DNA of 64,000 nt from an uncultured delta proteobacterium (lineage in GTDB: Bacteria > Desulfobacterota > Syntrophia > Syntrophales > UBA2185), in assembly GCA_963705275.1 (NCBI GenBank), contig OY970063.1, forward strand, positions 412,438 through 476,437. The letters are read 5' to 3'. Both the position numbers and the translations under genes were made by a program. Below the pieces are notes generated by a model. It was not told the DNA's origin. It saw nothing but the letters and a program-made list of their open reading frames with translations, and did no database searches. Each line of letters starts with the position of its first letter. Position 1 is the stretch's first letter. Shown one piece after another: positions 7,307-50,342 of the stretch.

Positions 7307-7307
7307 A

Positions 7308-9779: not shown

Positions 9780-9808
9780 ATTTATCTAAAGACCTAAGAA
9801 AGGAACTG

Positions 9809-10084
9809 ATGACCGTGCTTGAATCCGCATTGGATAAGATGGCAGAAACCATCCTCAGTCTCGATGAGGCATCGCTCGCCAGTCTGTGGGATAAATACAA
9901 GGCAAAGATGGAGCATTTCGAAACAACGAAGGAGTGGGAGAAATCCGTTATCATCTTTTTCATCATCAATGCCGTGCGCGTGAAGAATCACATCTTTAAC
10001 GAAAACATGCTTGAGCTGCAAAAGAAGCACGACAAACCCCAGAAGCCGCCAAAGAAGAAGCCTAACTTAAGACTGGTCAAGTGA
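9809..10084 (+). CDS. Hypothetical protein with lysine/proline-rich tail
   Basis: The ORF is open from 9734, but the promoter at 9752-9779 and the RBS favour the Met at 9809 (MTVLESALDKM...). It directly precedes ligA. Confidence 0.5.
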   Translation: MTVLESALDKMAETILSLDEASLASLWDKYKAKMEHFETTKEWEKSVIIFFIINAVRVKNHIFNENMLELQKKHDKPQKPPKKKPNLRLVK

Positions 10085-12377
<2,293 letters not shown>

Positions 12378-12384
<7 letters not shown>

Positions 12385-13563: not shown

Positions 13564-14202
13564 ACTCTGCCCCTCAACTCTGATTAATGTATGCTCTTAC
13601 GAGTCATTAACACAGCAAGTCTCTTGCGTCAATATTACGAATCGCCACACGAAATTGATTTTGATTCTGGATTAGTATTTACTGTTAACAAGAATTGGCG
13701 ACAAAACCCACTTATTTAAGATTGAGTCATTCTTTAAGACCATGGATTTCGGATTGAAAGAGCGTATCATTTAGTCAGGAGTTTTCCTGTATAATCCATT
13801 TGGATAGTCCTGCGGCTACCGCCAGCCGTGAAATATTTTCGATGGACAGTATCTGTGTCGGTTAGGGTCCGGAATCTTCCCGGTCGAAATATCTCCACTA
13901 GGGGTATGATCAACAAGAAAACATCTCATCAATTGGTCCAGCATCCAACAGTATCACAATACTTTTTAAATGTCGCTATATTAACCTGTGATTTAATCTG
14001 AACGTAAAGCTCTCTTGCCGGACACGGGCGAGAGTAAATTACGTCACCATTTCGCAAGAGACATTTGTTCTGTTGCCTCTACCTGACTGTCGGAAACTTC
14101 ACTGCCACCCGGAATGAGTAAGAATCAAATCGCAAAGCATCTCTGGGAAGATAGAAATTTCCCCTGTCCAGCCAAGTGATCGCGAATCAATCCTTCTAGT
14201 GC

Positions 14203-14727
14203 CTATTCGCAGCGAAGTACAGCGGATGTTTTGGCAAGTTCCAGATAAGCATCACGCTGGCGACCACTTACAAGCAACGTTTCGAGTCGGTCAAACAAAT
14301 CAACTGAGAACGTGAAGTCTCCTGCAGAGATGCTTAGTGTTTGAGCATCCTCACGGATTGGTCCACGCCAAAAGGGGTGAGTGCAATGAATTCCCTGTTG
14401 AAGTGCCATTGCAACATCATTTTGGTCATAAGCGACAAGGATATATTGGTTAATGTCGTCCTTAAATATTCCAGCCGGAAAAGGCAGAATTATGACGACG
14501 AAGCCCATTTTTGTTTCTGAGCTGGTATCACGAAAGAGATCAATCCCCCAGTAACGACTCGTTGCGATAGGTTTACCCAACAATTTATGCATTTCTGAGC
14601 GGCTAATATCCTTAGAGAATAGGATATTCGATCTATCCGGGAATTTGGCTGGCCAGGTATACTCTCCCGGGCACCCTCCCAAGAACGGAAGACAGAACAT
14701 GACAAATATCATGCAAACTCGACGCAT
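14203..14727 (-). CDS. Orphan lipoprotein, unknown function
   Basis: MRRVCMIFVMFCLPFLGGC is a signal peptide plus lipobox (LGGC). The ORF extends to 14778. I recognise no family. Confidence 0.5.
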   Translation of the reverse strand: MRRVCMIFVMFCLPFLGGCPGEYTWPAKFPDRSNILFSKDISRSEMHKLLGKPIATSRYWGIDLFRDTSSETKMGFVVIILPFPAGIFKDDINQYILVAYDQNDVAMALQQGIHCTHPFWRGPIREDAQTLSISAGDFTFSVDLFDRLETLLVSGRQRDAYLELAKTSAVLRCE

Positions 14728-14830
14728 AAGGTCTCGACCAAACAGCCAGGACTCATGCGAACCTGACCAAAGTCTCATTCGACGAAGAGCTTACCGTCAC
14801 AAACATATTCTCCATTTCGTTTATCCACCA

Positions 14831-14866
14831 ATAAAAAACCCCGACTCTTCTTTGAGAAACGGGGTT
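14831..14866 (-). terminator. Intrinsic terminator on the minus strand with no obvious upstream gene
   Basis: The minus strand reads AACCCCG-(16 nt)-CGGGGTT followed by TTTTTTAT. Confidence 0.6.
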
Positions 14867-15078
14867 TCAATAATCAGACCATATTACCCTCACGCAATGT
14901 TAAAGGGTTTATGAATTTTAATCTCGGGATTTATGTCTTTTGACTATCACGATTGCCATTAGAAATCTACAATGAAAATCAAAGATGGCTAGTCATTACT
15001 GGACTGTCAGGAAGTTGTTGTTCATTTGCAATGATTTGAACAATAGGACACACGATTGAAAAAATTAAATATTAATCC

Positions 15079-15107
15079 TTGACTTCCGAGATAAGACTCC
15101 ATATACT
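15079..15107 (+). promoter_or_regulatory. Sigma-70-type promoter of cspA (TTGACT-17 nt-TATACT)
   Basis: TTGACT at 15079-15084 and TATACT at 15102-15107. It implies a leader of about 140 nt. Confidence 0.65.
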
Positions 15108-15157
15108 ACAACCACTAAGTAAGTTTGGATTAAGACATTTTGAATTGCAAAGGATGG

Positions 15158-15191
15158 CCACCATACTTTTTAGAGTATCGGTGGTTTTTTT
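15158..15191 (+). terminator. Terminator-like hairpin plus U-tract inside the cspA leader (candidate attenuator)
   Basis: CCACCATACT-ttttag-AGTATcGGTGG forms a 10-bp stem with a 1-nt bulge, followed by TTTTTTT. It lies between the promoter and the cspA ATG. Confidence 0.55.
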
Positions 15192-15250
15192 CTTTCTGTC
15201 ATAGTGAAAATCCGACTTAAGAGAATATTTGGGAAAGGAGGATTAAAGCT

Positions 15251-15451
15251 ATGTCAGAAGGTAAAGTAAAGTGGTTTAATGAACACAAAGGCTTTGGTTT
15301 CATCGAAAATGATGAAGGCGGCGATTTGTTTGTTCATCACAGCGCCATACAGGGCGAAGGCTTCAAGACGTTGTCTGAAGGTCAGCGAGTGAGCTTTGAT
15401 GTTACCAAGGGCAAGAAAGGCCCGGCAGCAGAAAATGTGAAAGCATTATAA
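15251..15451 (+). CDS. cspA: Cold-shock protein (CSD)
   Basis: 66 aa with [12 protein letters not shown] and [11 protein letters not shown] motifs. AAGGAGG RBS. Confidence 0.95.
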
Positions 15452-15471
15452 GTTCACAGGAACTAAGCAAG

Positions 15472-15513
15472 AGGCACTCAGAAATGAATTAGTGAGAGTG
15501 CCTTTTTGTTTTT
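15472..15513 (+). terminator. Intrinsic terminator after cspA
   Basis: AGGCACTC...GAGTGCCT 8-bp stem followed by TTTTTGTTTTT. Confidence 0.75.
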
Positions 15514-15591
15514 CCAATAATCCCGCGTATCGGTGATCAATAACGCGGGGTTCAAAAGATCGATTAACAATTTAAATGAGAGGAAAAATAA

Positions 15592-15921
15592 ATGAATAAG
15601 AATTTATATGTAGGCAATCTCACGGTGAATGCCACCGAAGATGTCTTAAAGGAGAATTTTGCTACAGCGGGAACAGTAGCTACAGTGACTGTTATCAAAG
15701 ACAACTACACAAAACAGTCCAAGGGATTTGGATTCGTAGAAATGGAGACTGAGGAAGGTGCGCGTCAAGCCATCGAAATGTTCAACGGTGGAAAGCTTGA
15801 CGGCAATGTAATTGTCGTCAATGAGGCTAAACCCAAGAGAGACCAGGGAGGTCCGAGACGCGATTTCGGTCGAGGCGGAGGATTTAGAGGCGGAAATAGC
15901 GGAGGCGGTCGCAGATACTAA
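15592..15921 (+). CDS. RRM-type RNA-binding protein with RGG-rich tail
   Basis: RNP2 LYVGNL, RNP1 KGFGFVEM, and the C-terminal GRGGGFRGGNSGGGRRY. Confidence 0.92.
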   Translation: MNKNLYVGNLTVNATEDVLKENFATAGTVATVTVIKDNYTKQSKGFGFVEMETEEGARQAIEMFNGGKLDGNVIVVNEAKPKRDQGGPRRDFGRGGGFRGGNSGGGRRY

Positions 15922-15969
15922 AGAGGGTGAAGATAATTTGCTTCACGGCATCTCTTAATCTTATCAATA

Positions 15970-16008
15970 AAAAGGCAGTTCCAGAAATGGCTCTGCCTTT
16001 TTTATTTT
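15970..16008 (+). terminator. Intrinsic terminator after the RRM gene
   Basis: AAAGGCAG...CTGCCTTT stem followed by TTTTATTTT. Confidence 0.75.
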
Positions 16009-16083
16009 GGTATCGTTTAAGAATTGGGGGTTGGAATAGATTGCCACTCGAATACAGGGAGGATGACGAATCATTTGAATGCC

Positions 16084-16112
16084 CTTGACATTCAGACGCT
16101 CAATGTTTAAAG
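16084..16112 (+). promoter_or_regulatory. Sigma-70-type promoter (TTGACA-17 nt-TAAAGT)
   Basis: TTGACA at 16084-16089 and TAAAGT at 16107-16112, about 40 nt upstream of the zinc-ribbon gene. Confidence 0.55.
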
Positions 16113-16149
16113 TTTGAATAATTGAAGGCCATTACGATAAGAGGAAGAC

Positions 16150-16356
16150 ATGCCCATTTACGAATTCAAATGCAGAAAATGCCGCAATACCTTTGAGGTT
16201 TTATTCCTGTCCGGCAGCGACAATCCGCCCGTAGCCTGCCCCGCGTGTAAATCAAGAAAGGCAGAGCGTTTGATGTCTAAATTCGGCGGAAAGATCGGCA
16301 ATACATCATCGGCAGGCTGCTCGTCCTGTGCGGCAACGTCCTGCGGCCCCTCCTGA
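16150..16356 (+). CDS. FmdB-family zinc-ribbon protein
   Basis: MPIYEFKCRKCRNTFEVL...CPACKS is the CxxC...CxxC pattern of the FmdB/CxxC_CxxC_SSSS family, with a Ser/Cys-rich tail. Confidence 0.85.
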   Translation: MPIYEFKCRKCRNTFEVLFLSGSDNPPVACPACKSRKAERLMSKFGGKIGNTSSAGCSSCAATSCGPS

Positions 16357-16570
16357 TCAGGCTGATCGCCTGTGGCAGGTCGCCACTTCAAAAAAAAAAT
16401 CAGTTATAATTATTGTTGTAAAAAAAGATGTAATTTACTATAAGCATGCAGCCGTGGCTGCCTGCCTTGAAATGCCAAGGCTAATATCATTAATAATTTC
16501 TCCTTTGTGATGACAAAAGCCGCAGGTTTCTGATACCTGCAAAAAATACTTTTAGAAAGAGACGAAGACA

Positions 16571-17245
16571 ATGAATATTCTTATGTTCGGACCAAATGGC
16601 AGCGGTAAGGGGACGTTCGGCGCAGTTTTAAGCGACAGATTCGGAATTCCCCAGATAGAGACAGGCGTAATCTTCAGAGACAATATCTCGAAAGGCACGC
16701 CATTGGGGAAAGAGGCGAAGTCATACATTGACAAGGGCGAGCTGGTCCCCGATGGAATTACCATTCCCATGATTCTCAGCCGTCTTAAAGAAAAGGACTG
16801 CGAAAAAGGGTGGCTGTTAGACGGGTTCCCGCGAAACAAGACGCAGGCGGTGGCCTTCTGGGATGCCCTCCAGAAAGAAAAGATAAAGCTTGATTACGTT
16901 GTTGAGCTTATTCTCGACAGGGATACAGCCAAGAAGCGCATCATGGGAAGACGTTTGTGCCCCAAGGACAACAACCATCCAAACAATATTTACGTCAAGG
17001 CAAATCTGCCCGTGGAGAAAGAAGGCAAGCTATACTGCCGCGTCTGCGGGAGCCCGGGACTCTTAACCAGGGCAGACGATCAGGATGAAGCGGCAATTGA
17101 CAAGAGGCATGGCATTTACTTTGATACGAATGCTGGTACACTCGCCGCCGTCAACTACTTCAAGGAAAGAGTAAAGGTCATTCAGGTGGATACTGTTCCC
17201 GGCGTCAAGGAGGTTTCGGAAAGTCTCTTTAAATTGGTGAAGTAG
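16571..17245 (+). CDS. adk: Adenylate kinase (divergent P-loop and long LID)
   Basis: GPNGSGKGT P-loop, LLDGFPRN, and a long LID ending in LTRADDQDE. Confidence 0.85.
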   Translation: MNILMFGPNGSGKGTFGAVLSDRFGIPQIETGVIFRDNISKGTPLGKEAKSYIDKGELVPDGITIPMILSRLKEKDCEKGWLLDGFPRNKTQAVAFWDALQKEKIKLDYVVELILDRDTAKKRIMGRRLCPKDNNHPNNIYVKANLPVEKEGKLYCRVCGSPGLLTRADDQDEAAIDKRHGIYFDTNAGTLAAVNYFKERVKVIQVDTVPGVKEVSESLFKLVK

Positions 17246-35707: not shown

Positions 35708-38323
35708 TCATTTTGGCAGATTATCCAGTATCGCTTTCATCTTCTCGATGTCATATGGAACATCAACTCTCCAGCAGAATTCATTCTCCTTGAATTCTGA
35801 AACGAGGGGATCATCCGAATATCCGCATGAAACAATGGCCTTGACATGAGGATCTATGGTAAAAAGTTCCTTCAAGGTATCCTTCCCGCCCATCCCGTCT
35901 GGCACGTTCAGATCCAATACGACCGCATAAAATGGATAACCTTTTTCTGCGGCCATCTTATAGAGATCAACGGCTTCACTGCCATTCTTTGCATACTCAA
36001 CTTCATATCCAAGATAGTTAAGGACAATGCCTGTTGAATTCCGTACCGCCTCATCGTCATCCATAACCAATACCTTACCCTTTCTGGTAATTATTTGTTC
36101 CGTGACGCCTTTCCCTGAGGAGTCCAGCTGCGGTGAAGCAGGCAAATAGACGATGACGGTAGACCCCATACCCGGTTCAGATTCGACGGTGATGAAGCCA
36201 TCGTGTTTCTTTATGATGGAATAGCATACGGCAAGTCCCAGACCCATGCCTCTTGCGCTTCCTGTCGGCTTCGTCGTGAAATAAGGGTCAAATATTTTCG
36301 GCAAATCCTCCTTCGAAATACCGGCGCCATGATCCCTGATGGACCATTTCACATAACTGCCATCTTTCAACGGCAGACCGTTGCCTGCCGATATATTCAC
36401 ATTTTCGGCACGAATAGTTATTATTCCGACGTTATGCATAGCTTCGCGCGCATTGATCAAGAGATTGTGGATCACCTGTCGGATCTGCACATCATCCATT
36501 TCTACAGGCCACAGATTATCAGGCAGCGAGGATTCACATATTACATTAGAACCGCTCAGAGGAAGATCTACAGAATCCGTCAATAACTTTGAAATGGAGC
36601 CGATTTTTCTTAGGGGTTCGCCTCCTTTGGCGAAGGTCATCAAACGATGGGCCAATTCCTTCGCCTGATGACCCACCTTCTCAGCTATTTCGAGCCCCTC
36701 TCCCAAGAGTTCCTGTTGTTCATCTGGAAGAGATAATTTGGCGGCAAATATATTGCGCAGCATGACAGATACTAAATTATTAAAGTCATGCGCAATTCCA
36801 CTGGCAAAAATACCGAGTGATTCAAGCTTATTAACTCGTGACAACTCTTCTTCCGCCCTTCGGCGATCCGTAACATCATCCAGTGTTTCTATTGCGCCAA
36901 CAAGACTTCCTTGGGTATCCCTGATTACCGCTGCAGTAAAGTGAAGCCATTTCCCCGTCTCTCCCAGTTCCGGAAAAAAGTCTGTTGCCTCATAAGCCTC
37001 GTCCACCAACCGCGACTTCGTGTACTTATCAAGATACCACTGAGGAATTGACTCCAAGGCTTGATCCACCAATAGATCCGCCAAACAGGGTCTCTCTGCG
37101 CCATAGAATGCCCTCCATTGCCCTTTTGTGCCGACGATCTCTTCCGCCTTGATGCCACTGAGTTCCTCCAACGCCCTGTTCCAGTATATTACTCTGTGGT
37201 CTTTCCCGATTACGAACGTTGGAATGGGGGAACCTTCAATAACTCTGTGTAATCTCTGCTCACTCTCCTTGAGCTTTTCCTCCGCCTTCTTACGATCGGT
37301 GATGTCAGTAAAGATGGCGATACTACCTAAATACTGCCCATCCTTGTCATATACCGGCTTTGGCGAAACCAAGACTTGAATCTTATTGCCATCTTTGTGG
37401 GTGATAACAATTTCATAGGGGTCATCTTCCCCCTTTTCTCTCTTAATCCGTTGTTCCTGGAAAATTTTTTGATTCTCCTCTTCTACATACAATTTTGCGG
37501 CAGGATAACCGACAAGCTCTTCCTTGGGATATCCGGTCATCTCACAGAATTTCCTATTAACAAAGGTGCGAATACCTTTATTATCAACCATCCCTAAACC
37601 TTCATTCATGGTCTCAATCAGTAGCCGGTATTGCTCTTCGCTCTCCCTGAGCTTTTCCTCCGCCTTCTTACGATCGGTGATGTCAGCAAAGATGGCGATA
37701 CTACCTACATACTGCCCATCCTTGTCATATACCGGCTTTGGCGAAACCAAGACTTGAATCTTATTGCCATCTTTGTGGGTGATAACAATTTCATAGGGGT
37801 CATCTTCCCCCTTTTCTCTCTTAATCCGTTGTTCCTGGAAAATTTTTTGATTCTCCTCTTCTACATACAATTTTGCGGCAGGATAACCGACAAGCTCTTC
37901 CTTGGGATATCCGGTCATCTCACAGAATTTCCTATTAACAAAGGTGCGAATACCTTTATTATCAACCATCCCTAAACCTTCATTCATGGTCTCAATCAGT
38001 AGCCGGTATCTCTCTTCGGTCTCCCGCAGGGCATTTTCCGATTTACGGATAGAGTAGAAGAGCGGTGCAATCAAGGCAACTCCTGCCACCATCAGCACGG
38101 ATATAACAACGCCAACCAAATCGTCGAGCAGTGTGATATTAGGGGTTACTTGTATATGAAGAAAGGGCAATACATCTACGATGCGCCTCACAGCCATGAG
38201 TACAAGCCCAATCGCTATTAATATCCACGCGGCTCGAGCTTCTGTTACGCGTATCAACCTAAGCGCCAAGACGGCTGCCACTACTTGAAGCAAAACTGAA
38301 ATCAATAAAATATACTCAATCAT
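35708..38323 (-). CDS. Hybrid sensor histidine kinase: TM region, three PAS domains (two are near-identical copies), HisKA/HATPase, receiver
   Basis: H-box IAHDFNNL, G-boxes DHGAGI and GMGLGL, and a receiver with MDDDE...DLNVPDGMGG. Confidence 0.92.
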   Translation of the reverse strand: MIEYILLISVLLQVVAAVLALRLIRVTEARAAWILIAIGLVLMAVRRIVDVLPFLHIQVTPNITLLDDLVGVVISVLMVAGVALIAPLFYSIRKSENALRETEERYRLLIETMNEGLGMVDNKGIRTFVNRKFCEMTGYPKEELVGYPAAKLYVEEENQKIFQEQRIKREKGEDDPYEIVITHKDGNKIQVLVSPKPVYDKDGQYVGSIAIFADITDRKKAEEKLRESEEQYRLLIETMNEGLGMVDNKGIRTFVNRKFCEMTGYPKEELVGYPAAKLYVEEENQKIFQEQRIKREKGEDDPYEIVITHKDGNKIQVLVSPKPVYDKDGQYLGSIAIFTDITDRKKAEEKLKESEQRLHRVIEGSPIPTFVIGKDHRVIYWNRALEELSGIKAEEIVGTKGQWRAFYGAERPCLADLLVDQALESIPQWYLDKYTKSRLVDEAYEATDFFPELGETGKWLHFTAAVIRDTQGSLVGAIETLDDVTDRRRAEEELSRVNKLESLGIFASGIAHDFNNLVSVMLRNIFAAKLSLPDEQQELLGEGLEIAEKVGHQAKELAHRLMTFAKGGEPLRKIGSISKLLTDSVDLPLSGSNVICESSLPDNLWPVEMDDVQIRQVIHNLLINAREAMHNVGIITIRAENVNISAGNGLPLKDGSYVKWSIRDHGAGISKEDLPKIFDPYFTTKPTGSARGMGLGLAVCYSIIKKHDGFITVESEPGMGSTVIVYLPASPQLDSSGKGVTEQIITRKGKVLVMDDDEAVRNSTGIVLNYLGYEVEYAKNGSEAVDLYKMAAEKGYPFYAVVLDLNVPDGMGGKDTLKELFTIDPHVKAIVSCGYSDDPLVSEFKENEFCWRVDVPYDIEKMKAILDNLPK
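37262..38010 (-). repeat. Tandem direct duplication, 2 x 378 bp (126 codons, in frame), one PAS domain per copy
   Basis: 37271-37631 and 37649-38009 align without gaps over 361 bp with 2 mismatches (37309 T/37687 C and 37330 A/37708 C), compared base by base. Confidence 0.95.
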
Positions 38324-38748
38324 GACTCGCCTTCGTCGCCTTAATGCGAAGATAAATAATAAAATCCTAGCAGATTTTCACTGCGGGTGGAATTTCTATC
38401 ACAAAAGCCCCTGCACATGAAGGAATATTTGATACGCCACGCTCTTCCCGTTGCGCCCCCACATTGGTCGTGGTCATCGTGCGGAGCTACGAAATGTCAG
38501 AACGTGCTGTAAGTGATAATATGCCACTTTGCTTAATATCTGTACAGCAACACTTTTTACGCTTCCGTATAATCGGAGAAGTAGGCGTGTTTTCTCCAGA
38601 GTAGTCAAAAATTCTGTTGACACAGCGAATAGCATATGGTAAGCGCACTCCCGTACTTTACGGACGCATTGTGTTGCGATAAGAACATCCTGGTATTTAT
38701 TGACAACAGACAAATCCTCTAAATATCTCTAGAAGTTGGAAATTTAAA

Positions 38749-39111
38749 TTGACCCTCCACGAATTAAAAAAGCTTCTTGACGCAGAAGTCCTGATCGGTG
38801 AAGACCAGATGGACATGGAAGTGAAGACAGCCTTTGTCGCCGACCTCATGAGTGACGTTCTTGCCTTCGCGACTGCAGGGAGTCTTTTGATTACAGGTTT
38901 AACAAATCCTCAGGTTGTAAGGACAGCAGATGTGCTTGATATAGCTGCAATAATCATGGGTCGAGGGAAATTACCATCCCAGGAGACCTTCCAGTTAGCG
39001 GAGGAACTTAACATCCCCATTCTTACGACCAAGTATATTCTGTTTGAGATCGCTGGACGGTTGTACGCTAAAGGTATAAGAGGTTGTATAGAAAAAGTGG
39101 GGAGTAAATAA
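38749..39111 (+). CDS. DRTGG-domain protein (copy 1)
   Basis: 120 aa with a TTG start. The pattern ...FVADLMSDVLAFA..GSLLITGLTNPQVVRTADVLDIAAIIMGRGK...IPILTT...FEIAGRLY matches small DRTGG proteins. Confidence 0.8.
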   Translation: MTLHELKKLLDAEVLIGEDQMDMEVKTAFVADLMSDVLAFATAGSLLITGLTNPQVVRTADVLDIAAIIMGRGKLPSQETFQLAEELNIPILTTKYILFEIAGRLYAKGIRGCIEKVGSK

Positions 39112-39119
39112 GCGTAATC

Positions 39120-39566
39120 GTGGATGAAAAACCCCTGTATGAAGGAAGTTTTACAGTCGTCGGCGGTAATTTTGACAATGCTGGAGAAGTGTCAACTAAT
39201 ATCAAGTCGATTTTGAAGAAGATAGGGCTCTCCAAAGATGTGGTCAGGAAAGCGGCCCTCGTTGCTTATGAATCGGAAATAAATATTGTGTCTTATGCTA
39301 GAAAAGGGATGATCAGACTCCGCGTTGTCCCTGACTGCATAATGATAGAGGCTATAGATGAAGGCCAGGGGATTCCGGACATCGAGCAGGCCATGCAACC
39401 CGGATTCTCGACGGCGAATCAGAAGATCAGGGAAATGGGGTTTGGTGCCGGAATGGGATTGTGCAATATAAGAAGCTTTTCTGATGTATTTCAAATCTCG
39501 TCTGAAATCGGCAAAGGCACACACCTCAAAATGATCATCAAGGCGAACAGCAGCGTTATTCAATAG
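39120..39566 (+). CDS. RsbW/SpoIIAB-like GHKL serine-kinase-type ATPase ('anti-sigma regulatory factor')
   Basis: 148 aa with a GTG start, N-box-like ESEINIV, G1 DEGQGIPD and G2 GFGAGMGL. Confidence 0.75.
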   Translation: MDEKPLYEGSFTVVGGNFDNAGEVSTNIKSILKKIGLSKDVVRKAALVAYESEINIVSYARKGMIRLRVVPDCIMIEAIDEGQGIPDIEQAMQPGFSTANQKIREMGFGAGMGLCNIRSFSDVFQISSEIGKGTHLKMIIKANSSVIQ

Positions 39567-39588: not shown

Positions 39589-39933
39589 GTGGATTTAGAA
39601 TCTGTCGTCAAAGCCCTGAATTTAAAGGTCAGATCCGGTGAGGACAAGCTGAAAGCGGAGATTCGCGGAGGGTACGTAGGGGATTTGTTGAGCGATGTCA
39701 TGGCAAACAGCAAAGAGGGCGACATCTGGATTACCCGCCAGGTTCATCAGAATATCGTTGCCGTGGCCAGTCTTAAAGAACATGCGGGTATAATCCTCGT
39801 TCACGGAAGCGAGCCTGCAAAGGACACCATCGAAAAAGCCATCAAAGGGGGCGTTCCTGTAATGGTATCGGATCTTCCGTGTTTTGAGATTACCGGCAGA
39901 ATATACGCATTAATAAGCAAGAAGACCGATTGA
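39589..39933 (+). CDS. DRTGG-domain protein (copy 2)
   Basis: 114 aa with GGYVGDLLSDVMANSKEGDIWITRQVHQNIVAVASL...FEITGRIY. Confidence 0.8.
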   Translation: MDLESVVKALNLKVRSGEDKLKAEIRGGYVGDLLSDVMANSKEGDIWITRQVHQNIVAVASLKEHAGIILVHGSEPAKDTIEKAIKGGVPVMVSDLPCFEITGRIYALISKKTD

Positions 39934-39996: not shown

Positions 39997-40737
39997 ATGC
40001 TCAGGGCATTTCGTTGCGATCTCCATGTACATACGTGCCTTTCACCCTGCGCAGACTTAGATATGTATCCTCGGGCAGTGGTAGACAAAGCCGTTGCCGA
40101 AAAATTGGACATCATTGCTATATGCGATCACAATGCCTCGGAGAATGCACGATTTGTATTGAGGTCTGCTGAGGGGAAACCGCTCACAGTCCTCCCGGGG
40201 ATGGAAATAACAAGCAGTGAAGAAGTTCATCTGCTGGCTCTTTTTGATACGTTGGATGGTCTGAAAAACATCCAGAATATTATTTATGCTCATCTTTCCG
40301 GTACGAATCGAGAGGAGATATTCGGATGCCAAGCTATCGTCAATGACTTAGACGAAGTTGAGGGCTTTAACGATAGGTTTCTCCTCGGAGCAGCCAAGTT
40401 ATCGCTGCCTGAAATTGTTGATCAGATTCATGGGTTCGGCGGGCTTGTGATCGCCTCTCATATCGATCGGGAAAGCTATAGCGTCATCAGCCAATTGGGG
40501 TTTATCGACCCGGATATTCATCTTGATGCCCTTGAGGTAACGCACCACACCGGATTTAAAGAGGCCCGGATAAAGTATCCAGAACTATCAGATTACCCTA
40601 TCATTGAGTCATCCGATGCGCATTTTATTAATGACATCGGAGGCGTGGCGACAACGATATTTATGGAAAGTGGTACTGTCTCGGAACTGAAAATGGCCTT
40701 TAGGAAACAAGGTGGCAGATATATTCAGGAGACATAG
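39997..40737 (+). CDS. PHP-domain metal-dependent phosphoesterase
   Basis: CDLHVHTCLSPCA...ICDHN...SHIDR...SSDAH histidine/aspartate pattern of the PHP fold. Confidence 0.8.
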   Translation: MLRAFRCDLHVHTCLSPCADLDMYPRAVVDKAVAEKLDIIAICDHNASENARFVLRSAEGKPLTVLPGMEITSSEEVHLLALFDTLDGLKNIQNIIYAHLSGTNREEIFGCQAIVNDLDEVEGFNDRFLLGAAKLSLPEIVDQIHGFGGLVIASHIDRESYSVISQLGFIDPDIHLDALEVTHHTGFKEARIKYPELSDYPIIESSDAHFINDIGGVATTIFMESGTVSELKMAFRKQGGRYIQET

Positions 40738-41286
40738 TTGCTTGAGATCTCCCTGCATATCCTGGATATTGTAGAAAACTCCACCAGGGCCGGTGCTAAT
40801 ACCGTATGTATTGACATTATAGAAAATACAGCAAAGGACATCCTGTCTTTAGAAATACGGGATAATGGTTCCGGGATGACCGCGGATGTTCTAAATAAAG
40901 TCATTGATCCATTTTTCACGACGAAAACGGTTCGCAGCGTCGGGTTAGGGCTCCCCATGCTTGCCCAGGCAGCCGAAAGAGCAGATGGTAGATTTATAAT
41001 CGAATCGAAGGGCGGTGAAGGAACGAGGGTTGCTGCAGATTTTAGACTCAGTCATATTGACAGACAGCCCCTTGGAGACATATCGGGTACACTTGTCACC
41101 CTGATTGCCGGAAATGAGGACGTCGATCTTATTTATCGTCATGAACATAATGGTCAGGTATATATTTTCGATACACGAGAAATTAAAAAAGAAATTGAAG
41201 ATATACCAATTAATCATGTGGCTGTTCTGAACTTCATCAGGGATCATGTAATAGAAGGCCTGAAGGAAATCGGGGCAGAGGCATGA
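40738..41286 (+). CDS. Stand-alone HATPase_c (GHKL) protein lacking a DHp/His phosphoacceptor domain
   Basis: TTG start abutting the PHP stop. N-box ENSTRAGA, G1 RDNGSGM, and FFTTK...GLGLPM. Confidence 0.75.
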   Translation: MLEISLHILDIVENSTRAGANTVCIDIIENTAKDILSLEIRDNGSGMTADVLNKVIDPFFTTKTVRSVGLGLPMLAQAAERADGRFIIESKGGEGTRVAADFRLSHIDRQPLGDISGTLVTLIAGNEDVDLIYRHEHNGQVYIFDTREIKKEIEDIPINHVAVLNFIRDHVIEGLKEIGAEA

Positions 41287-41308: not shown

Positions 41309-41827
41309 ATGAAAGCGGGTAACGGAGATTTTGACATAAATAAAGAATTTACTGCCGAACAACTTGCAAAGCTTGACGACATCATCAAGAAATCCAAGGA
41401 CAAACCGGGCGCGCTAATTCCTGTTTTGGAGGAAGCGCAGATGGTCCTTGAATTCTTACCGATGCCTATTTTGCAGATAATTGCAAAAGGGCTGAATCTG
41501 CCGATGAGTCGTGTATACGGGGTCGTGACCTTTTATTCATTCTTTACGATGACCCCCCGCGGCAAGCATACATTGCGCGTGTGCCTCGGTACAGCTTGCT
41601 ACGTCCGCGGAGGCAAGTCCATCATGGAGGCAATACAGAAAGAGCTCGGCGTAAAAGAAAAAGAGACAACAGCCGACAGGCTCTTTTCGCTTGAGTCCGT
41701 CAGATGCCTTGGCGCCTGCGGATTGGCCCCGGTCATAGTCATCACCGAAGACGTCCACGGCCGGATGAAAACGCAAAAGGTAAGGGAAATACTGAGTCCA
41801 TACAGGGAAGAAACTGTATCAGCCTAA
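41309..41827 (+). CDS. NuoE/HydC-like thioredoxin-fold [2Fe-2S] subunit
   Basis: CLGTAC...CLGACGLAP cysteine pattern; 172 aa. Confidence 0.9.
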   Translation: MKAGNGDFDINKEFTAEQLAKLDDIIKKSKDKPGALIPVLEEAQMVLEFLPMPILQIIAKGLNLPMSRVYGVVTFYSFFTMTPRGKHTLRVCLGTACYVRGGKSIMEAIQKELGVKEKETTADRLFSLESVRCLGACGLAPVIVITEDVHGRMKTQKVREILSPYREETVSA

Positions 41828-41854
41828 CAAATTTTTCAGACGAGGGAAATAGCT

Positions 41855-42223
41855 ATGGCAAAACTCACGATAGCAGATTTAAAGAAGATCAAGGATAAAG
41901 TTCATTCCGAAACCTCATTGAGGGCGGGGGAGCATAGGGGTAAGGTAACGGTACACATGGGAACCTGTGGTATTGCCGCAGGTGCACGGGCAGTAATGGA
42001 CTCGTTGATGGGGGCGATCGCCGAAGCCAATGTATCCGATGTCATCGTGACAACGTCGGGATGCGCGGGACTATGCAGCCAGGAGCCTATGGTAACTGTT
42101 GAGCTTACGGGGAAGAACCCTATAGTCTATGGTAAGATCGATGCAAACAAGATGCGACAGATATTTATGAGACATGTCATGCAGGGAGAGGTGCAGACCC
42201 CGTTTGCGATAGCCAAGGTCTAA
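41855..42223 (+). CDS. Thioredoxin-like [2Fe-2S] ferredoxin
   Basis: 122 aa with GTCGIAAGA...TSGCAGLCSQEP. Confidence 0.8.
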   Translation: MAKLTIADLKKIKDKVHSETSLRAGEHRGKVTVHMGTCGIAAGARAVMDSLMGAIAEANVSDVIVTTSGCAGLCSQEPMVTVELTGKNPIVYGKIDANKMRQIFMRHVMQGEVQTPFAIAKV

Positions 42224-42285
42224 ATATCCATCAATACTAATGAACAAGTTAATTATACTAAAATGCTAAGGAGGAAGATATCCAC

Positions 42286-45200
42286 ATGAAAGTGTTTCGT
42301 TCACATTTTTTGATCTGTGGAGGAACCGGTTGTCATGCTTCAGGAACTGGCAAGGTCAAGAAGGCCTTGATGGAAGAGATTGATAAGAGAGGTCTTTCAA
42401 AAGACGTCAAGATCGTTGAGACCGGTTGTAATGGATTCTGTGCCTTGGGGCCTATTATGGTGGCCTATCCCGAGGGCGTTGTGTATATGTCAATGAAAGC
42501 TGAAGATATGCCTGAGCTGGTAGAGGAACATTTGGTCAAGGGCAGAATACTTCAAAGGCTTCTCTACAAGGAACCCACGACGCAAGAAGTGATCCCCGCC
42601 ATGAATGACATACCCTTTTTCGCCCTTCAGGAACTGAGGGTATTGAGAAATAGAGGGCTCATTGACCCGGAAAACATCGATGAGGCAATTGCGAGGGATG
42701 CCTACTCTGGAATGGCTAAGGCCCTGACGGAAATGACGCCCGAACAGATTGTTAAGGAGGTTTTGGATTCAGGTCTACGAGGCAGAGGTGGGGCAGGCTT
42801 CCCCACAGGTCTTAAGTGGAGATTCTGCTCCCAGTCCCCCAGCGATTTGAAATATGTTCTCTGTAATGCCGACGAGGGAGACCCCGGAGCATTCATGGAC
42901 AGGAGCGTCCTCGAGGCTGACCCCCATGCCGTCCTCGAGGGAATGGTGATTGCCGCCAAGGCCATCGGCTCTCACAGCGGATATATTTACTGCCGTGCTG
43001 AGTATCCTCTGGCCATCCACCGGCTGAACGTCGCCATCGACCAAGCCAAGGCGTACGGCCTCCTCGGTAAAGATATTCTGGGGACTGGTTTTGATTTCGA
43101 TTTACAAATCTACCAGGGCGCTGGCGCCTTCGTCTGCGGCGAAGAGACCGCCCTGATGACTTCAATTGAAGGCAAGCGCGGCATGCCAAGGCCTCGCCCG
43201 CCCTTCCCTGCCATTGCGGGACTCTGGCAGAAACCTTCTATTTTGAATAACGTAGAGACCTTTGCCAATATCGCACAGATCATTTTGAAGGGTGCTTCCT
43301 GGTACAATGCTGTAGGGACAGAAAAGAGCAAAGGAACGAAGGTATTCGCTCTTACAGGAGACGTGAACAACGTCGGCCTCGTGGAAGTTCCCATGGGAAC
43401 CTCTCTCGGGCAAATTGTTTATGACATCGGTGGTGGAATCCCCCGCGGCAGGAAGTTCAAAGCCGCTCAGCTGGGCGGTCCATCCGGTGGCTGTATTCCC
43501 GCTGAGCATCTTAATGCTCCTATTGACTTTGAGCGCGTCACGGAACTGGGAGCCATCATGGGTTCCGGCGGTATGATCGTTCTGGATGAAGATAAATGCG
43601 CAGTGGACATGGCCCGTTTCTTTATGGACTTCGTTCAGGACGAGTCCTGCGGAAAGTGTACACCCTGCCGTGAAGGAACCAAGAGAATGCTTGAGATGCT
43701 GACGAACATCAGCCAGGGCAAGGGCAAGGAAGGAGACATCGAACTCTTGGAAGAGATGGCGGCCATAATCAAGAACGCATCGCTCTGCGGTCTAGGACAG
43801 ACGGCCCCGAATCCTGTGCTCAGTACCATTCGGTATTTCAGGGATGAATATGAGCAGCACATCAGAGATAAGCGTTGCAAAGCCGTCGTTTGCTCCGCCC
43901 TTTTCAAATCACCCTGTCAGCATACATGCCCGGCAGGTATGGACGTTCCGGCTTATATCGCCCTCATCAGGTCCGGACGTTTTGAAGATGCGTACAAGGT
44001 AATGTTGCAGACGAATCCCCTCCCCTCTGTGTGCGGAAGGGTCTGCGATCACAAGTGCCAGTCGAAGTGCCGCAGAGGCAAGCTTGACGAATCCCTTGCC
44101 ATCAAATTCTTAAAGAGATTTATTACCGACAATGCGCCGCGGCCCAAAATCACTCCCGTTAGTGTAACGCGGAAAGAAAGAATAGCCGTCATCGGCGCAG
44201 GGCCTGCCGGTCTGACGGCGGCTCGGGATCTGGCACGCAGAGGATATAAGGTAACTGTATTCGAGGAACTTTCGGAACCAGGTGGAATGCTCCGCTGGGC
44301 TATTCCTGCTTACAGGCTGCCGAGGGAAACCCTTGCCAGTGAAATTAATGACAATATTAAATCTCTGGGAGTAGAAATCAAATGCAATACCCGCGTGGGC
44401 AAAGACATTTCTTTTGAACAGGTGGGCAAAGATTTCGATTACATCTTCCTCGCGCCCGGTGCCCAAAAGAGCCAGCCCATGGGCGTTCCCGGAGAAAATC
44501 TAAAGGGCGTCTACGGAGGAGTTGAATTCCTCAGAGATTTTAATGCCAATGAGGAAGCCTGGTTGAGCGGCAAGAAAACGCTCGGTTCAAAAGTGGCTGT
44601 AATCGGTGGTGGTAATTCCGCTATCGATGCTGCCCGCGTTGCGCTCCGTCTGGGGGCCGATGTAACCATTCTTTACCGTCGCGAGAGAAAGGATATGCCG
44701 GCGGCTGAGGAAGAGATCATCGCTGCGGAAGAGGAAGGCGTCAAGATTGAATATCTTGTCGCCCCGCTAAAAATCAACGAAAAGGATGGCAAGATAAACG
44801 GCATCACCTGTCAGAGGATGAAGTTAAGTGAGTTCGACCGAAGCGGGCGAAAGAAACCTGCGCCAATTGCGGGCTCCGAATTTACCCTGAGCGTAGATGC
44901 CGTCGTCGCCGCAATCGGTCAGACGTCAGACATGACCTTCGTCCCCAAGGACAGCGGTGTGAATGTCAATAAATGGTCCACTTTTGATCTTGCCAAGGGA
45001 AGCAAATCTCAGACAACGAATCCAAAATTCTTCACCGGTGGTGATGCACTAACCGGACCCGACACCGTCATCGGCGCCATTGAGGCCGGACACCAGGCAG
45101 CCAGAGATATGGACAGCCACATCAGGAAAATCAACGGTGAACCTGCTTACGTGGAACCGCCTGAGGATAAGATTGAAATTCCCTTTATCATTGATGAGGA

Positions 45201-45348
45201 GGCCGTGGAAGCTCCTCAGGCAAAGATGCCGGAGTTGCACGGGCCTGAGCGTAAACGCAATTTCAAAGAGGTCGAATTGGGCTACTTGAGAGAAGTGGCT
45301 ATTCAGGAAGCGTGCCGCTGTCTGCGGTGCGATGCTGAAATCAGCTAA
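42286..45348 (+). CDS. Fusion protein: 2Fe-2S domain + NuoF/HydB-like FMN/NADH module + GltD/NfnB-like FeS-FAD-NAD(P)H module
   Basis: 1020 aa. N-terminus has CGGTGC...CNGFC. The NuoF part has GRGGAGFPTGLKW, ESCGKCTPCREG and SLCGLGQTAPNP. From about aa 545 (nt ~43,900) it has CQHTCPAGMDVPAYI...VCGRVCDHKCQSKC. Two Rossmann motifs follow (VIGAGPAGLTAA and VIGGGNSAIDAARV...ILYRR), then a terminal CLRCD. Confidence 0.88.
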   Translation: MKVFRSHFLICGGTGCHASGTGKVKKALMEEIDKRGLSKDVKIVETGCNGFCALGPIMVAYPEGVVYMSMKAEDMPELVEEHLVKGRILQRLLYKEPTTQEVIPAMNDIPFFALQELRVLRNRGLIDPENIDEAIARDAYSGMAKALTEMTPEQIVKEVLDSGLRGRGGAGFPTGLKWRFCSQSPSDLKYVLCNADEGDPGAFMDRSVLEADPHAVLEGMVIAAKAIGSHSGYIYCRAEYPLAIHRLNVAIDQAKAYGLLGKDILGTGFDFDLQIYQGAGAFVCGEETALMTSIEGKRGMPRPRPPFPAIAGLWQKPSILNNVETFANIAQIILKGASWYNAVGTEKSKGTKVFALTGDVNNVGLVEVPMGTSLGQIVYDIGGGIPRGRKFKAAQLGGPSGGCIPAEHLNAPIDFERVTELGAIMGSGGMIVLDEDKCAVDMARFFMDFVQDESCGKCTPCREGTKRMLEMLTNISQGKGKEGDIELLEEMAAIIKNASLCGLGQTAPNPVLSTIRYFRDEYEQHIRDKRCKAVVCSALFKSPCQHTCPAGMDVPAYIALIRSGRFEDAYKVMLQTNPLPSVCGRVCDHKCQSKCRRGKLDESLAIKFLKRFITDNAPRPKITPVSVTRKERIAVIGAGPAGLTAARDLARRGYKVTVFEELSEPGGMLRWAIPAYRLPRETLASEINDNIKSLGVEIKCNTRVGKDISFEQVGKDFDYIFLAPGAQKSQPMGVPGENLKGVYGGVEFLRDFNANEEAWLSGKKTLGSKVAVIGGGNSAIDAARVALRLGADVTILYRRERKDMPAAEEEIIAAEEEGVKIEYLVAPLKINEKDGKINGITCQRMKLSEFDRSGRKKPAPIAGSEFTLSVDAVVAAIGQTSDMTFVPKDSGVNVNKWSTFDLAKGSKSQTTNPKFFTGGDALTGPDTVIGAIEAGHQAARDMDSHIRKINGEPAYVEPPEDKIEIPFIIDEEAVEAPQAKMPELHGPERKRNFKEVELGYLREVAIQEACRCLRCDAEIS

Positions 45349-45380
45349 TCTCTCTTTAGCAATCAGAATTGTTTTACCTT

Positions 45381-45409
45381 GAACCCCGTCCCCTGGACGG
45401 GGTTCTTTT
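45381..45409 (+). terminator. Intrinsic terminator closing the operon
   Basis: GAACCCCGTCC-cct-GGACGGGGTTC 11-bp stem followed by TTTT. Confidence 0.7.
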
Positions 45410-45423
45410 ATGAAGTGGCGGAA

Positions 45424-45936
45424 ATGGCAGAGATAAAAAGCACGCTGGACATCATCATGGAACGGACAAAGAACCTGACCATGACGGATAAAGAGAAGGC
45501 ATCCTTCAAGCGGAAAGAAGCAGAAGGTAAAGTTAAAGGATGGATACAAAAATATAAGGATGGAATAGTCGGGCTTGATATACTGAGGTCAGACTTCGAG
45601 AAGGAGAGAAAAGAATATCCGGAAGTGCGCCAGATTCTCCAGTCGCAGCTCCTCGACTGCTTGAGACTGACTGGGGACAACGGAAAGATATTAAGACTTC
45701 TTGAAGATGTCCTTGGGATAAGTACAAATACCATTAAGAGTACGATTCAGTCTCTCAAGCAGGAGACGGAGATTCTGCGGAAGGAGAGAATGGCAACAGT
45801 CAGGGACGACCTTAGAGAAAAGAAGATATACGGATCAGCGGTTGTTCCCAATCCGGATCGCGACGGATATTTGCAGGAGAGCATACTGAAGGCGGAATCT
45901 GAGATGAGGAAACGGTTGAAGGCTCTTGAAGGATAA
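45424..45936 (+). CDS. Hypothetical coiled-coil protein
   Basis: The ORF is open from 45379, but that stretch is the terminator hairpin. The Met at 45424 (MAEIKSTLDIIMERTK...) is the first start after it. Confidence 0.5.
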   Translation: MAEIKSTLDIIMERTKNLTMTDKEKASFKRKEAEGKVKGWIQKYKDGIVGLDILRSDFEKERKEYPEVRQILQSQLLDCLRLTGDNGKILRLLEDVLGISTNTIKSTIQSLKQETEILRKERMATVRDDLREKKIYGSAVVPNPDRDGYLQESILKAESEMRKRLKALEG

Positions 45937-49472: not shown

Positions 49473-50342
49473 GTGAAAATTAGGGAACTACTTTCTCAAA
49501 AGAAATTTATCCTTTCGTTCGAGGTTTTCCCTCCGAAGAGAGAAGGCAATCTTGATAGTCTGTATGTCACGATTACGGAACTGTCGGAATCGAAGCCTGA
49601 TTTCATCTCTGTAACCTACGGAGCAGGAGGAAGCACGAGGGAGAAAACAATAGAAATATCCTCCAAGGTCAAGAATGAATTTAAGCTGGAGGTGCTGGCC
49701 CATCTCACCTGCGTTCAGTCCACCAGGGATGACATAGCGCGGATTCTCGATTGCCTTAAGGATGAAAACGTGGAGAACATCCTTGCCCTGCGGGGCGACC
49801 CGCCGGAAGGAATGGACAAATTCACAATGACGGAAGGCGGCTTCGGGCATGCGAACGAGCTTGTAGAATTCATCAGGGGCCGCGCCGACTTCTCGATAGG
49901 CGTTGCCGGTTATCCGGAGGGACACATCGAGGCCCCCAGCATTGAATTCGACATGAAGTATTTGAAGAGGAAGGTGGATGCGGGCGCGGACTTCATCATC
50001 ACCCAGCTATTCTATGATAACGACTTCTTCTACAGCTTTCGCGATCGCGCCATGGCACTTAAAATTGATGTTCCCATAATACCGGGGATATTCCCCATCC
50101 TGAACTACAACCAGATCAAACGGATTGCATCCCTTGCCGGCGTGAAGATACCGACGAAATTCGGCGAAAAGGTCGAAAAGAATAAAGACCGGCCGGAGGA
50201 CGTTGAGAAATACGGAATAGAATACGCAACCCTTCAGGCGGAGAACCTGATTAAGAACGATGTAGCAGGCCTGCATCTTTACTGCATGAACAAGAGCCAT
50301 CCGGTGAAGACGATCCTTGCTGAATTATCTTTACCCCGCTGA
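49473..50342 (+). CDS. metF: Methylenetetrahydrofolate reductase
   Basis: 289 aa with a GTG start, FEVFPPK, SVTYGAGGSTR and ALRGDPP motifs. Confidence 0.92.
   Translation: MKIRELLSQKKFILSFEVFPPKREGNLDSLYVTITELSESKPDFISVTYGAGGSTREKTIEISSKVKNEFKLEVLAHLTCVQSTRDDIARILDCLKDENVENILALRGDPPEGMDKFTMTEGGFGHANELVEFIRGRADFSIGVAGYPEGHIEAPSIEFDMKYLKRKVDAGADFIITQLFYDNDFFYSFRDRAMALKIDVPIIPGIFPILNYNQIKRIASLAGVKIPTKFGEKVEKNKDRPEDVEKYGIEYATLQAENLIKNDVAGLHLYCMNKSHPVKTILAELSLPR

Follow-up and report, generated by a model that had tools for sequence, protein, structure and literature searches.

A BfuB::GltD fusion protein encoded with BfuC and BfuD, and without a neighbouring catalytic subunit, in an uncultured Syntrophales bacterium

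The Bfu family of bifurcating enzymes is characterized by an invariant BfuBC core with the sites B1–B5 and C1; non-bifurcating homologues lack B2–B5, and a small "type 4" has no BfuA (Schut et al. 2022). In the published structures the bifurcation site consists of B1, a flavin mononucleotide (FMN) and C1. The third substrate enters via the A1 cluster of BfuA to B1, and low-potential electrons exit via the mobile C1 to B3/B4 and then to ferredoxin. A "sub-type I" BfuABC(D), in which B3/B4 of BfuB are replaced by a DPD_II domain and a domain for flavin adenine dinucleotide (FAD) and NAD(P), was described in a 2024 study of Hydrogenedentota genomes (PMC11406978), which also names homologues from several phyla, among them Syntrophus gentianae (with BfuD) and Desulfotignum balticum. 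The authors of that work state that the coexistence of FAD with an FMN–iron–sulfur (FeS) centre "has never been reported" and needs study, and they speculate that the FAD is a possible second bifurcation centre (PMC11406978). The present text concerns a locus of three redox genes with this architecture in a 64-kb stretch of DNA from an uncultured Syntrophales bacterium (contig OY970063.1). This whole stretch is termed the window, and statements on the absence of partner genes cover these 64 kb. An initial annotation had proposed that the three genes, one of which is a fusion of nuoF and gltD type sequences, encode a hydrogenase-less, electron-bifurcating NADH/NADPH/ferredoxin oxidoreductase.

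By its sequence the fusion protein is a BfuB/HydB subunit in which the B3/B4 domain has given way, at the same junction, to a module with an NADP(H) site, FAD and two [4Fe-4S] clusters. This fusion architecture is already published (PMC11406978) and is no new invention; as aligned here, the locus is a BfuA-less copy of that Bfu subtype, known only from sequence data. In the literature no biochemical characterisation of a subtype member was found, and the fusion is not described in the literature on Margulisbacteria, Heliorestis, deep-sea Chloroflexi, Syntrophus aciditrophicus enoyl-CoA respiration or multimeric hydrogenases. Our reading, held with a little more belief than doubt, is that the locus would encode a Bfu-type redox core (BfuC, BfuD, and BfuB joined to a cassette of the type found in the StnABC enzyme) without a neighbouring catalytic subunit, which would serve as an NAD(H)–NADP(H) electron module, either by itself or together with a BfuA from another part of the genome. 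The redox genes, the parts of the fusion protein (numbered in amino acid residues, aa) and the end of the operon are as follows.

41309..41827 (+): BfuC / NuoE / HydC-like subunit, 172 aa, with the C1 [2Fe-2S] site (PF01257, E-value = 5.8e-50)
41855..42223 (+): BfuD-like small thioredoxin-fold protein, 122 aa, with a metal site H34/C38/C70/C74 ([2Fe-2S] or Zn)
42286..45348 (+): NuoF::GltD fusion protein, 1020 aa (open reading frame)
42286..42570 (+): fusion residues 1–95, thioredoxin-like domain with the B5 [2Fe-2S] site (PF01257 at 6–81)
42571..43905 (+): fusion residues 96–540, BfuB/NuoF core with FMN/NAD(H) site, SLBB domain and a four-helix bundle with B1 and B2
43906..45348 (+): fusion residues 541–1020, GltD/NfnB module of the Stn type; two [4Fe-4S] clusters, FAD and NADP(H) site (Fer4_20, Pyr_redox_2)
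45381..45405 (+): intrinsic terminator and end of the operon, an 11-bp stem with 8 G-C pairs followed by TTTTAT

All three open reading frames of the initial annotation are present at these positions, and the strong terminator it had placed at nucleotide (nt) 45,381 was found there with its T-run; it is the strongest of its region. The Pfam matches in the 1020-aa open reading frame are PF01257 (positions 6–81), Complex1_51K (160–330), SLBB (353–402), NADH_4Fe-4S (441–525), Fer4_20 (532–617) and Pyr_redox_2 (632–935). The motifs quoted initially are all found in the fusion, i.e. GRGGAGFPTGLKW at positions 166–178, CQHTCPAG at 544–551, VCGRVCDHKCQSKC at 582–595, GAGPAG at 637–642 and ILYRR at 795–799, and the junction, estimated to be near nt 43,900, is at about residue 540 (nt ~43,903). 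The cofactor content claimed for the protein (FMN and FAD, an FeS chain and two pyridine-nucleotide sites) agrees with the sites predicted from Pfam and from conserved residues.

An alignment of 112 fusion sequences, with about 51–96% identity, was used to assess conservation. In the NuoF part the B5 site (C11/C16/C48/C52), the FMN/NAD(H) loop G166–G171 (GRGGxG) and the B1 [4Fe-4S] ligands (C455/C458/C461/C501) are invariant. Also invariant is a set of three Cys and one His (C438/H525/C531/C536) that, at the sequence level, fits the B2 site, which is a 3Cys-1His site with Zn in most structures. In the GltD part there are no changes in the ligands of the distal cluster (C544/C595/C1012/C1015), those of the FAD-proximal cluster (C548/C587/C591/K610), the GxGxxG motif for FAD (G637/G639/G642) or the NADPH-type GGGxxA...YRR motif (G774–G776/A779, R798/R799).

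Residues 1–542 of the fusion align with residues 1–542 of 7t2r_B, the NiFe-HydB of A. mobile, with an E-value of 7.8e-243 (812 bits). FeFe-HydB, StnB and NfnB chains follow with 604–770 bits. In this alignment of the N-terminal part, which the initial annotation had suggested, every one of the nearest chains of known structure is a BfuB subunit from a bifurcating enzyme; non-bifurcating FdsB gives 414 bits and Nqo1 386 bits (Nqo1/NuoF range 380–386). The HydB/BfuB chains in the PDB (584–630 aa) align only up to their own residue ~542–573, and their last ~55 residues, the twin-[4Fe-4S] domain that holds B3/B4, have no counterpart in the fusion. The replacement of the twin-ferredoxin C-terminus of HydB by the GltD module, as initially described, is therefore supported: the alignments end at ~542, in HydB chains 597–630 aa long, and Fer4_20 and Pyr_redox_2 follow.

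At the sequence level the locus displays a BfuC with C1 and a BfuB with the FMN/NAD(H) site and the B1, B2 and B5 sites; the C-terminal ferredoxin-like domain with B3/B4 is lacking. The pair does not correspond to NuoEF of complex I, as the extra B5 domain, the B2 site and the GltD module are present and the match to BfuB is far higher. In addition, the operon has no nuo genes, and none were noted among the larger open reading frames scanned in the window.

The GltD module has its best PDB match with residues 101–567 of 9bov_A, the NfnA of C. saccharolyticus (E-value = 3e-111). T. sibiricus NfnA, T. maritima NfnB, P. furiosus NfnL and StnC are the next matches, and true GltD is far weaker (6s6s_G, E-value = 1.6e-62, 215 bits versus 324–376 bits for NfnA, StnC and NfnB). 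The N-terminus of NfnSL-L (residues 8–43, which ends in CxxC) matches residues 981–1016 of the fusion. This is a circular permutation: the last 40 residues of the fusion supply two ligands of the distal cluster, as they do in NfnA/StnC. As both ends of the module are at the distal cluster, it would be an easy cassette to insert. The FAD-proximal cluster has a Lys ligand, K610, which corresponds to K170 of StnC/NfnA; the motif is LKRF in the fusion versus LERF, with Glu, in 4ylf_B and 5jca_L, and the Lys is invariant in the 112 sequences. Alignment of the C-terminal part, another step that had been recommended, therefore places it closest to the NfnA/StnC type by the shared permutation and Lys ligand, and on these features the GltD module is of the Stn/NfnABC type. 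The NCBIfam model PRK12771 spans the end of the helix bundle together with the GltD module.

Structural and mutational work on StnC has shown that its FAD does not bifurcate, and the FAD of NfnABC is at the end of the electron chain. R677 of the fusion is conserved; its NfnB counterpart is an Arg in contact with N5 of the bifurcating FAD. This Arg was considered as a marker of a bifurcating FAD and was rejected, as StnC has the same Arg with a non-bifurcating FAD. An examination of the residues surrounding the flavin, also recommended initially, thus finds the Arg kept but non-discriminating, and a Lys in place of the Glu ligand. By analogy with StnC and NfnABC, the FAD of the fusion is probably a plain converter between two-electron and one-electron steps, and non-bifurcating.

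The 1020-aa fusion is real and common, and it is not an assembly artefact. There are more than 120 clusters (at 90% identity) of full-length proteins of 1018–1032 aa with at least 79% identity to it, annotated just as "NuoF" or "FAD-dependent oxidoreductase", and another 120 clusters, mostly annotated as Clostridia/Firmicutes, belong to a clade that is ~55% identical. The frequency and lineages of the fusion, which the initial annotation had wished to see surveyed, were assessed by a scan of one genome per species. Fusion loci are found in at least 236 species and span Syntrophales, Syntrophobacteraceae, Clostridia, Bacteroidia, Spirochaetota, Acidobacteriota, Armatimonadota, Planctomycetia and one archaeon; Bacteroides luti, Clostridium sediminicola and Sinanaerobacter chloroacetimidivorans are cultured carriers. 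Uninterrupted full-length fusion genes were obtained from independent assemblies in 68 cases. The gene is exactly 3060 nt without a stop codon in all seven sequences compared (the window and six relatives with 95–96% protein identity). Against these six relatives the ratio of nonsynonymous to synonymous substitution rates (dN/dS) is 0.03–0.05 in each half of the gene, with dS of 0.49–0.79. Only 8 residues separate the conserved ligands of the two halves (C536 of B2 and C544 of the GltD cluster).

An AlphaFold2 model of the fusion is confident, with a predicted local distance difference test (pLDDT) score of 87 and a predicted template modelling (pTM) score of 0.83. A Foldseek search with this model gives BfuB chains first (target-normalised template modelling score 0.82–0.96), followed by NfnA/StnC, ahead of NfnSL-L; Foldseek alone leaves the relative positions of the domains unsettled.

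Variants of the arrangement are also found in the protein library. P0206 and P0231 (~650 aa) display the B1 four-helix bundle, Fer4_20 and the FAD/NADPH module without an FMN domain. P0173 (1130 aa) is a full fusion with an extra twin-[4Fe-4S] domain after the GltD module, and from this the cassette may have begun as an insertion.

The two small subunits are conserved as well. In BfuC, C92, C97, C133 and C137 are retained in 71–72 of 72 orthologues, and almost all loci of sufficient length have nuoE directly upstream of the fusion. The 122-aa open reading frame shows no Pfam match at an E-value of 0.001 or less. In the PDB it comes closest to the N-terminal domains of StnB and of the NfnB proteins from T. 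sibiricus and C. saccharolyticus (E-values from 1e-10 to 2e-8). It has three Cys and a conserved His; H34 is present in 29/29 orthologues and each Cys (C38, C70, C74) in 28/29. The corresponding site in the N-terminal domains of StnB/NfnB holds a [2Fe-2S] cluster in one structure and Zn in another. The initial label of "2Fe-2S ferredoxin" is thus not established; the protein is better described as a thioredoxin-like domain with three Cys and one His, whose metal may be [2Fe-2S] or Zn. As judged by these alignments, it corresponds to the "BfuD" of the literature. Clear BfuD orthologues are present in the Syntrophales/Syntrophobacteraceae loci with any type of partner, and a few distant loci show weak matches of 26–37%.

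To see the core in its genomic setting, 80 loci were compared with the genes of the window, and 77 of these contain the 3′ end of the fusion. A BfuA-type partner follows nuoE and the fusion in 63 of the 77. In 62 loci it starts within 700 nt, and the 63rd (L019) has an FdhA about 950 nt downstream of the fusion. The partner is an [FeFe]-HydA with Fer2_4, a NuoG-type cluster, a twin-cluster domain and H-cluster domains in 47 loci, and a NuoG-like subunit with the small and large subunits of a NiFe-hydrogenase, as in A. mobile HydABCSL, in 8. Seven partners are Fdh-like or other BfuA-type proteins; most of them are FdhA genes split in two open reading frames, and a split HydA (L017) and a BfuA-like gene of archaeal origin (L067) also belong to this class. 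One example of a split FdhA is at positions 10995–13688 of L032, where ~350- and 537-aa open reading frames are separated by a short gap; the same is found in L009, L019, L025 and L028. The split probably represents an in-frame UGA selenocysteine codon.

A neighbour-joining tree of the fusion proteins shows the partner types interleaved within the Syntrophales clade of at least 78% identity. One locus (L006, positions 9234–16635) has a single bfuC-bfuD-bfuB::gltD core followed by both a NuoG-like plus NiFe-hydrogenase module and an FdhA, which suggests that one core may serve two catalytic modules.

The remaining 14 of the 77 loci have no partner. They comprise nine relatives with at least 93% identity, a second Syntrophales clade and one Planctomycetia locus. 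The window represents a tenth copy of the partner-less arrangement beside the nine close relatives. In the second clade (L007, L008, L021 and L031) a convergent or unrelated gene is next. The partner-less loci belong to at least three lineages, and each ends at a terminator or a convergent gene. The window itself has no HydA-, NuoG- or Fdh-like (BfuA-like) gene. The initial statements that no catalytic partner follows and that the system is "hydrogenase-less" hold locally, but they do not hold for the family, where a HydA, NiFe-hydrogenase or FdhA module is the rule.

Two further arrangements were seen in the survey. In the Spirochaetota/Brevinematales loci L039 (positions 5988–7400), L044 and L066, an extra stand-alone 470-aa NfnB/GltD-like gene is located immediately upstream of nuoE. 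In several Bacteroidia loci (L038, L045, L047, L048, L050, L051, L053 and L076), some 2 kb downstream of the first hydA, there is another nuoE-nuoF-hydA set, of the canonical type, next to the fusion-type set.

How the NADP(H) module might be wired can be considered from its position. In the four-helix bundle, the B1 ligands would be in the H1–H2 and H3–H4 loops and B2 at the start of H1 and the end of H4 (helix limits are from the AlphaFold2 model). The C-terminal domain of NiFe-HydB begins after residue 536. As C544 of the fusion is 8 residues after C536, where the B3/B4 domain of HydB starts, the NADP(H) module is most likely on the C1-gated branch, whose usual end point is ferredoxin. The two GltD clusters would be located roughly where B3/B4 sit, and B1 would stay the port for a BfuA-type partner. 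The predicted path is from NAD(H) and FMN to C1, the distal and proximal [4Fe-4S] clusters, and FAD with NADP(H), in either direction. In the partner-bearing relatives, H2 or formate would be linked to NAD(H) and NADP(H) instead of NAD(H) and ferredoxin. For the present genome we lean slightly, and tentatively, to a stand-alone, regulated NADPH:NAD+ oxidoreductase, since several lineages share the partner-less state and strong purifying selection acts on it.

Several points weigh against this proposal. The wiring to the C1 branch instead of B1 rests on sequence position and published structures, and the ~650-aa proteins with a B1 bundle and GltD module but no FMN domain hint at direct contact of the GltD cluster with B1. 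The view is limited to 64 kb of the genome, and a BfuA gene may be located elsewhere. A stand-alone, uncoupled NADPH:NAD+ enzyme would dissipate the potential difference between NADPH and NADH unless tightly controlled. By analogy with NfnB-like proteins (PMC12221290), ferredoxin could dock on the exposed distal cluster. Finally, the assigned function of the whole subtype is deduced from sequence.

A serious alternative, though not the one we favour, is that the locus encodes the NAD(H)/NADP(H)-binding part of a hydrogenase or formate dehydrogenase whose BfuA-type catalytic subunit has its gene at another place in the genome and docks at B1. Such a partner is present in cis in 63/77 related loci, the B1 ligands are invariant, and the regulator genes of the partner-bearing versions are retained (see below). 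Docking also looks modular, as close relatives swap HydA, NiFe and Fdh modules and L006 has two. Against this, the window shows no BfuA-like gene, and the partner-less arrangement, closed each time by a terminator or convergent gene, is found in at least three lineages.

The coupling proposed initially, a self-contained ferredoxin-dependent bifurcating transhydrogenase similar to Nfn/Stn, in which NADPH reduces NAD+ and ferredoxin at the FAD or at B1-FMN-C1, appears improbable. It would agree with the two flavins, the two different pyridine-nucleotide sites and the FeS chain, with the retention of C1 and of B2 and B5 sites of the bifurcating type, and with the kinship of the GltD module and BfuD to Stn/NfnABC. 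The NfnB Arg at N5 of the FAD is kept (R677), though it is also present in StnC; the FAD has been speculated to be a second bifurcation centre (PMC11406978), and NfnB-like proteins by themselves can use ferredoxin (PMC12221290). Ferredoxin coupling is nevertheless the weakest part of the initial claim, because the missing B3/B4 domain is the exit by which low-potential electrons reach ferredoxin in every Bfu enzyme studied, and non-bifurcating homologues lack it too. The NuoG-like A1–A3 chain that feeds NADPH electrons to B1 in Stn/NfnABC is absent, the ligand next to the FAD is the Lys of the Stn type (with a non-bifurcating FAD) and not the Glu of NfnB, and the operon has no NfnA/NfnS-like partner to give the FAD a second exit. 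Most relatives, moreover, are subunits of hydrogenases or formate dehydrogenases.

That the C-terminal half is a true small subunit of glutamate synthase, with the complex feeding GltB, is very hard to believe: the module is homologous to GltD, but the GltD match is far below those of NfnA/StnC/NfnB, the permutation and Lys ligand are of the Stn type, there is no gltB in the operon, and a hydrogenase or formate dehydrogenase module is next in 63/77 related loci. A join of separate nuoF and gltD genes in assembly or annotation, for which no evidence was found, is rejected for practical purposes, given hundreds of full-length homologues from independent assemblies in several phyla (cultured species included), seven stop-free genes of equal length, the low dN/dS on both sides of the junction and the close spacing of conserved ligands across it.

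Upstream of the redox genes, and in the same direction, are five putative regulatory genes.

38749..39111 (+): DRTGG-domain protein, 120 aa (Pfam DRTGG, E-value = 2.6e-10), first of the five
39120..39566 (+): histidine-kinase-like ATPase, 148 aa, HATPase_c_2 (Pfam)
39589..39933 (+): second DRTGG-domain protein, 114 aa (Pfam DRTGG, E-value = 7.2e-6; synteny)
39997..40737 (+): PHP-domain phosphoesterase-like protein, 246 aa (Pfam PHP and PHP_C; synteny)
40738..41286 (+): second HATPase_c protein, 182 aa (Pfam HATPase_c, E-value = 1.5e-13; synteny)

The DRTGG/HATPase/DRTGG/PHP/HATPase set accompanies the redox core, with any partner type, in most of the Syntrophales/Syntrophobacteraceae loci (L001–L028); it is absent upstream in L014, and in L016 it lies on the other strand. 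The set is lacking from most loci of the distant clades, of which L052 retains one HATPase match. The 148-aa HATPase shows 68–92% identity in most relatives of the group with at least 78% identity, and is weaker or absent in L012, L013, L026 and L031. No link between DRTGG/PHP/HATPase genes and hydrogenases was found in the literature, nor any account of the role of the set. A scan for sigma-54 promoters (TGGCAC-N5-TTGC) gave 45 matches versus ~49 expected, with none in the intergenic region 38324–38748, and a sigma-70 scan was at chance level.

Divergent from the operon is a gene at 35708–38323 (−) for an 871-aa hybrid sensor with PAS, kinase and receiver domains. A 378-nt unit is repeated 2.0 times with 98% identity inside this gene (37263–38025), an in-frame duplication of one ~126-aa PAS unit. 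On the other side, the listed 185-aa open reading frame at 45379–45936 (+) has a TTG start that is overlapped by the terminator hairpin, so the true start is probably a Met at about nt 45424. The 185-aa protein shows no Pfam or NCBIfam match and is conserved only 53–75% where the fusion protein is conserved 93–96%. The other neighbours among the scanned genes are mostly housekeeping or unrelated (EF-G, LigA, RpoN, DnaB, ClpB and MTHFR). The MTHFR gene (49473–50342, +; E-value = 1.7e-95) is 4 kb downstream of the redox genes. The stn genes of Sporomusa ovata are located just downstream of metVF, and this parallel may be a coincidence.

A more far-reaching idea, speculative and rather unlikely, is that BfuB::GltD, BfuC and BfuD form a complete enzyme, the smallest natural Bfu-type machine, in which the C1-gated low-potential branch would end in NADP(H). 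It would be a conformationally gated NADPH:NAD+ transhydrogenase or a three-substrate bifurcating enzyme, with free ferredoxin at the vacant B1 port or the exposed distal cluster, and the partner-bearing relatives would be hydrogenases and formate dehydrogenases that confurcate NADH and NADPH without ferredoxin. If true, these relatives would represent a large, unrecognised class of such enzymes. Nernst arithmetic with physiological potentials (NADH −280, NADPH −380, H2 −414 mV) gives, for the reoxidation of NADH, an H2 ceiling of ~100–150 Pa for NADH plus NADPH, versus a few Pa for NADH alone, and the higher ceiling would suit syntrophs whose pathways yield little reduced ferredoxin. Among Syntrophales, Clostridia, Bacteroidia, Spirochaetota and Acidobacteriota the subtype is frequent, and current redox models annotate it as "NuoF"; if H2 or formate is coupled to NADH and NADPH, this would be a new reaction for redox models of syntrophs and fermenters in peat, sediment and digesters. 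The mechanism of Bfu bifurcation is still argued. A variant with a replaced exit, available as a compact set of three small genes, could be used to test the C1 gate and the need for a low-potential acceptor. The fusion is not new; the subtype is mechanistically provocative, and the orphan version is a compact experimental handle.

The locus can finally be compared with the known systems. NfnAB/NfnSL (T. maritima, 4ylf; P. furiosus, 5jca) share with the GltD module the NfnB/L fold, two [4Fe-4S] clusters, the FAD, the NADPH site and the Arg near the FAD. The locus differs in having Lys and not Glu as ligand, and in that the CxxC segment is at the C-terminus instead of the N-terminus. For NAD(H) the locus has an FMN/NuoF module where NfnAB/NfnSL have an FNR-like FAD subunit; none of the eight operon genes has the domains of the NfnA/S small subunit (FNR-like, with [2Fe-2S] and FAD). 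On their own, NfnB-like proteins are able to work as ferredoxin:NADP+ oxidoreductases (PMC12221290). HdrA9-11 of ANME-1 archaea (PMC9012536) follows a comparable plan, with an NfnB-like NADPH module placed within, or instead of, a bifurcating enzyme's ferredoxin-type domain; the host protein there is HdrA, which is unrelated to NuoF/BfuB, and the system has likewise been described from sequence data only.

StnABC of Sporomusa ovata and NfnABC of C. saccharolyticus and T. sibiricus (8oh5, 9bov, 9n5u) are Bfu-type NADH-dependent ferredoxin:NADP+ oxidoreductases. They have in common with the locus the NuoE- and NuoF-like subunits, FMN, B1, the B2 site and C1, as well as the GltD permutation and the Lys ligand, and BfuD resembles the N-terminal domain of StnB/NfnB. 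Their GltD module, however, is inserted in a NuoG/Fdh-like BfuA subunit (StnC/NfnA), where the A1 [2Fe-2S] domain and a NuoG/Fdh-like chain, clusters A1–A5, wire the FAD to B1. This chain is absent in the locus; the fusion protein ends 5 residues after its CxxC motif, and there is no NuoG-like gene in the window. StnB/NfnB also keep B3/B4 for ferredoxin, whereas in the locus the GltD module is on BfuB in their place. The resemblance to Nfn/Stn noted initially is thus real in the permutation, the Lys ligand and BfuD, but the description as their two large subunits fused is not, as both the A1/NuoG chain and B3/B4 are absent.

NiFe-HydABCSL (A. mobile, 7t2r) and FeFe-HydABC (A. woodii, T. kivui, T. 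maritima) give the best sequence and fold matches for residues 1–542. Compared with them, the locus is without the ferredoxin-like C-terminus of HydB and without a catalytic subunit, and has the NADP(H)/FAD module in addition; its close relatives carry NuoG-like plus NiFe or HydA genes that match the HydABC(SL) types. Sub-type I BfuABC(D) has the same BfuB architecture (DPD_II equals two [4Fe-4S] clusters), with BfuC present and BfuD optional. It differs in having HydA in the cluster, while the window has no adjacent BfuA and a terminator after the fusion. All sub-type I clusters include HydA because they were collected starting from bfuA (PMC11406978). That work reports only [FeFe] partners; to these the present survey adds NiFe-hydrogenase and FdhA partners, and loci with no partner.

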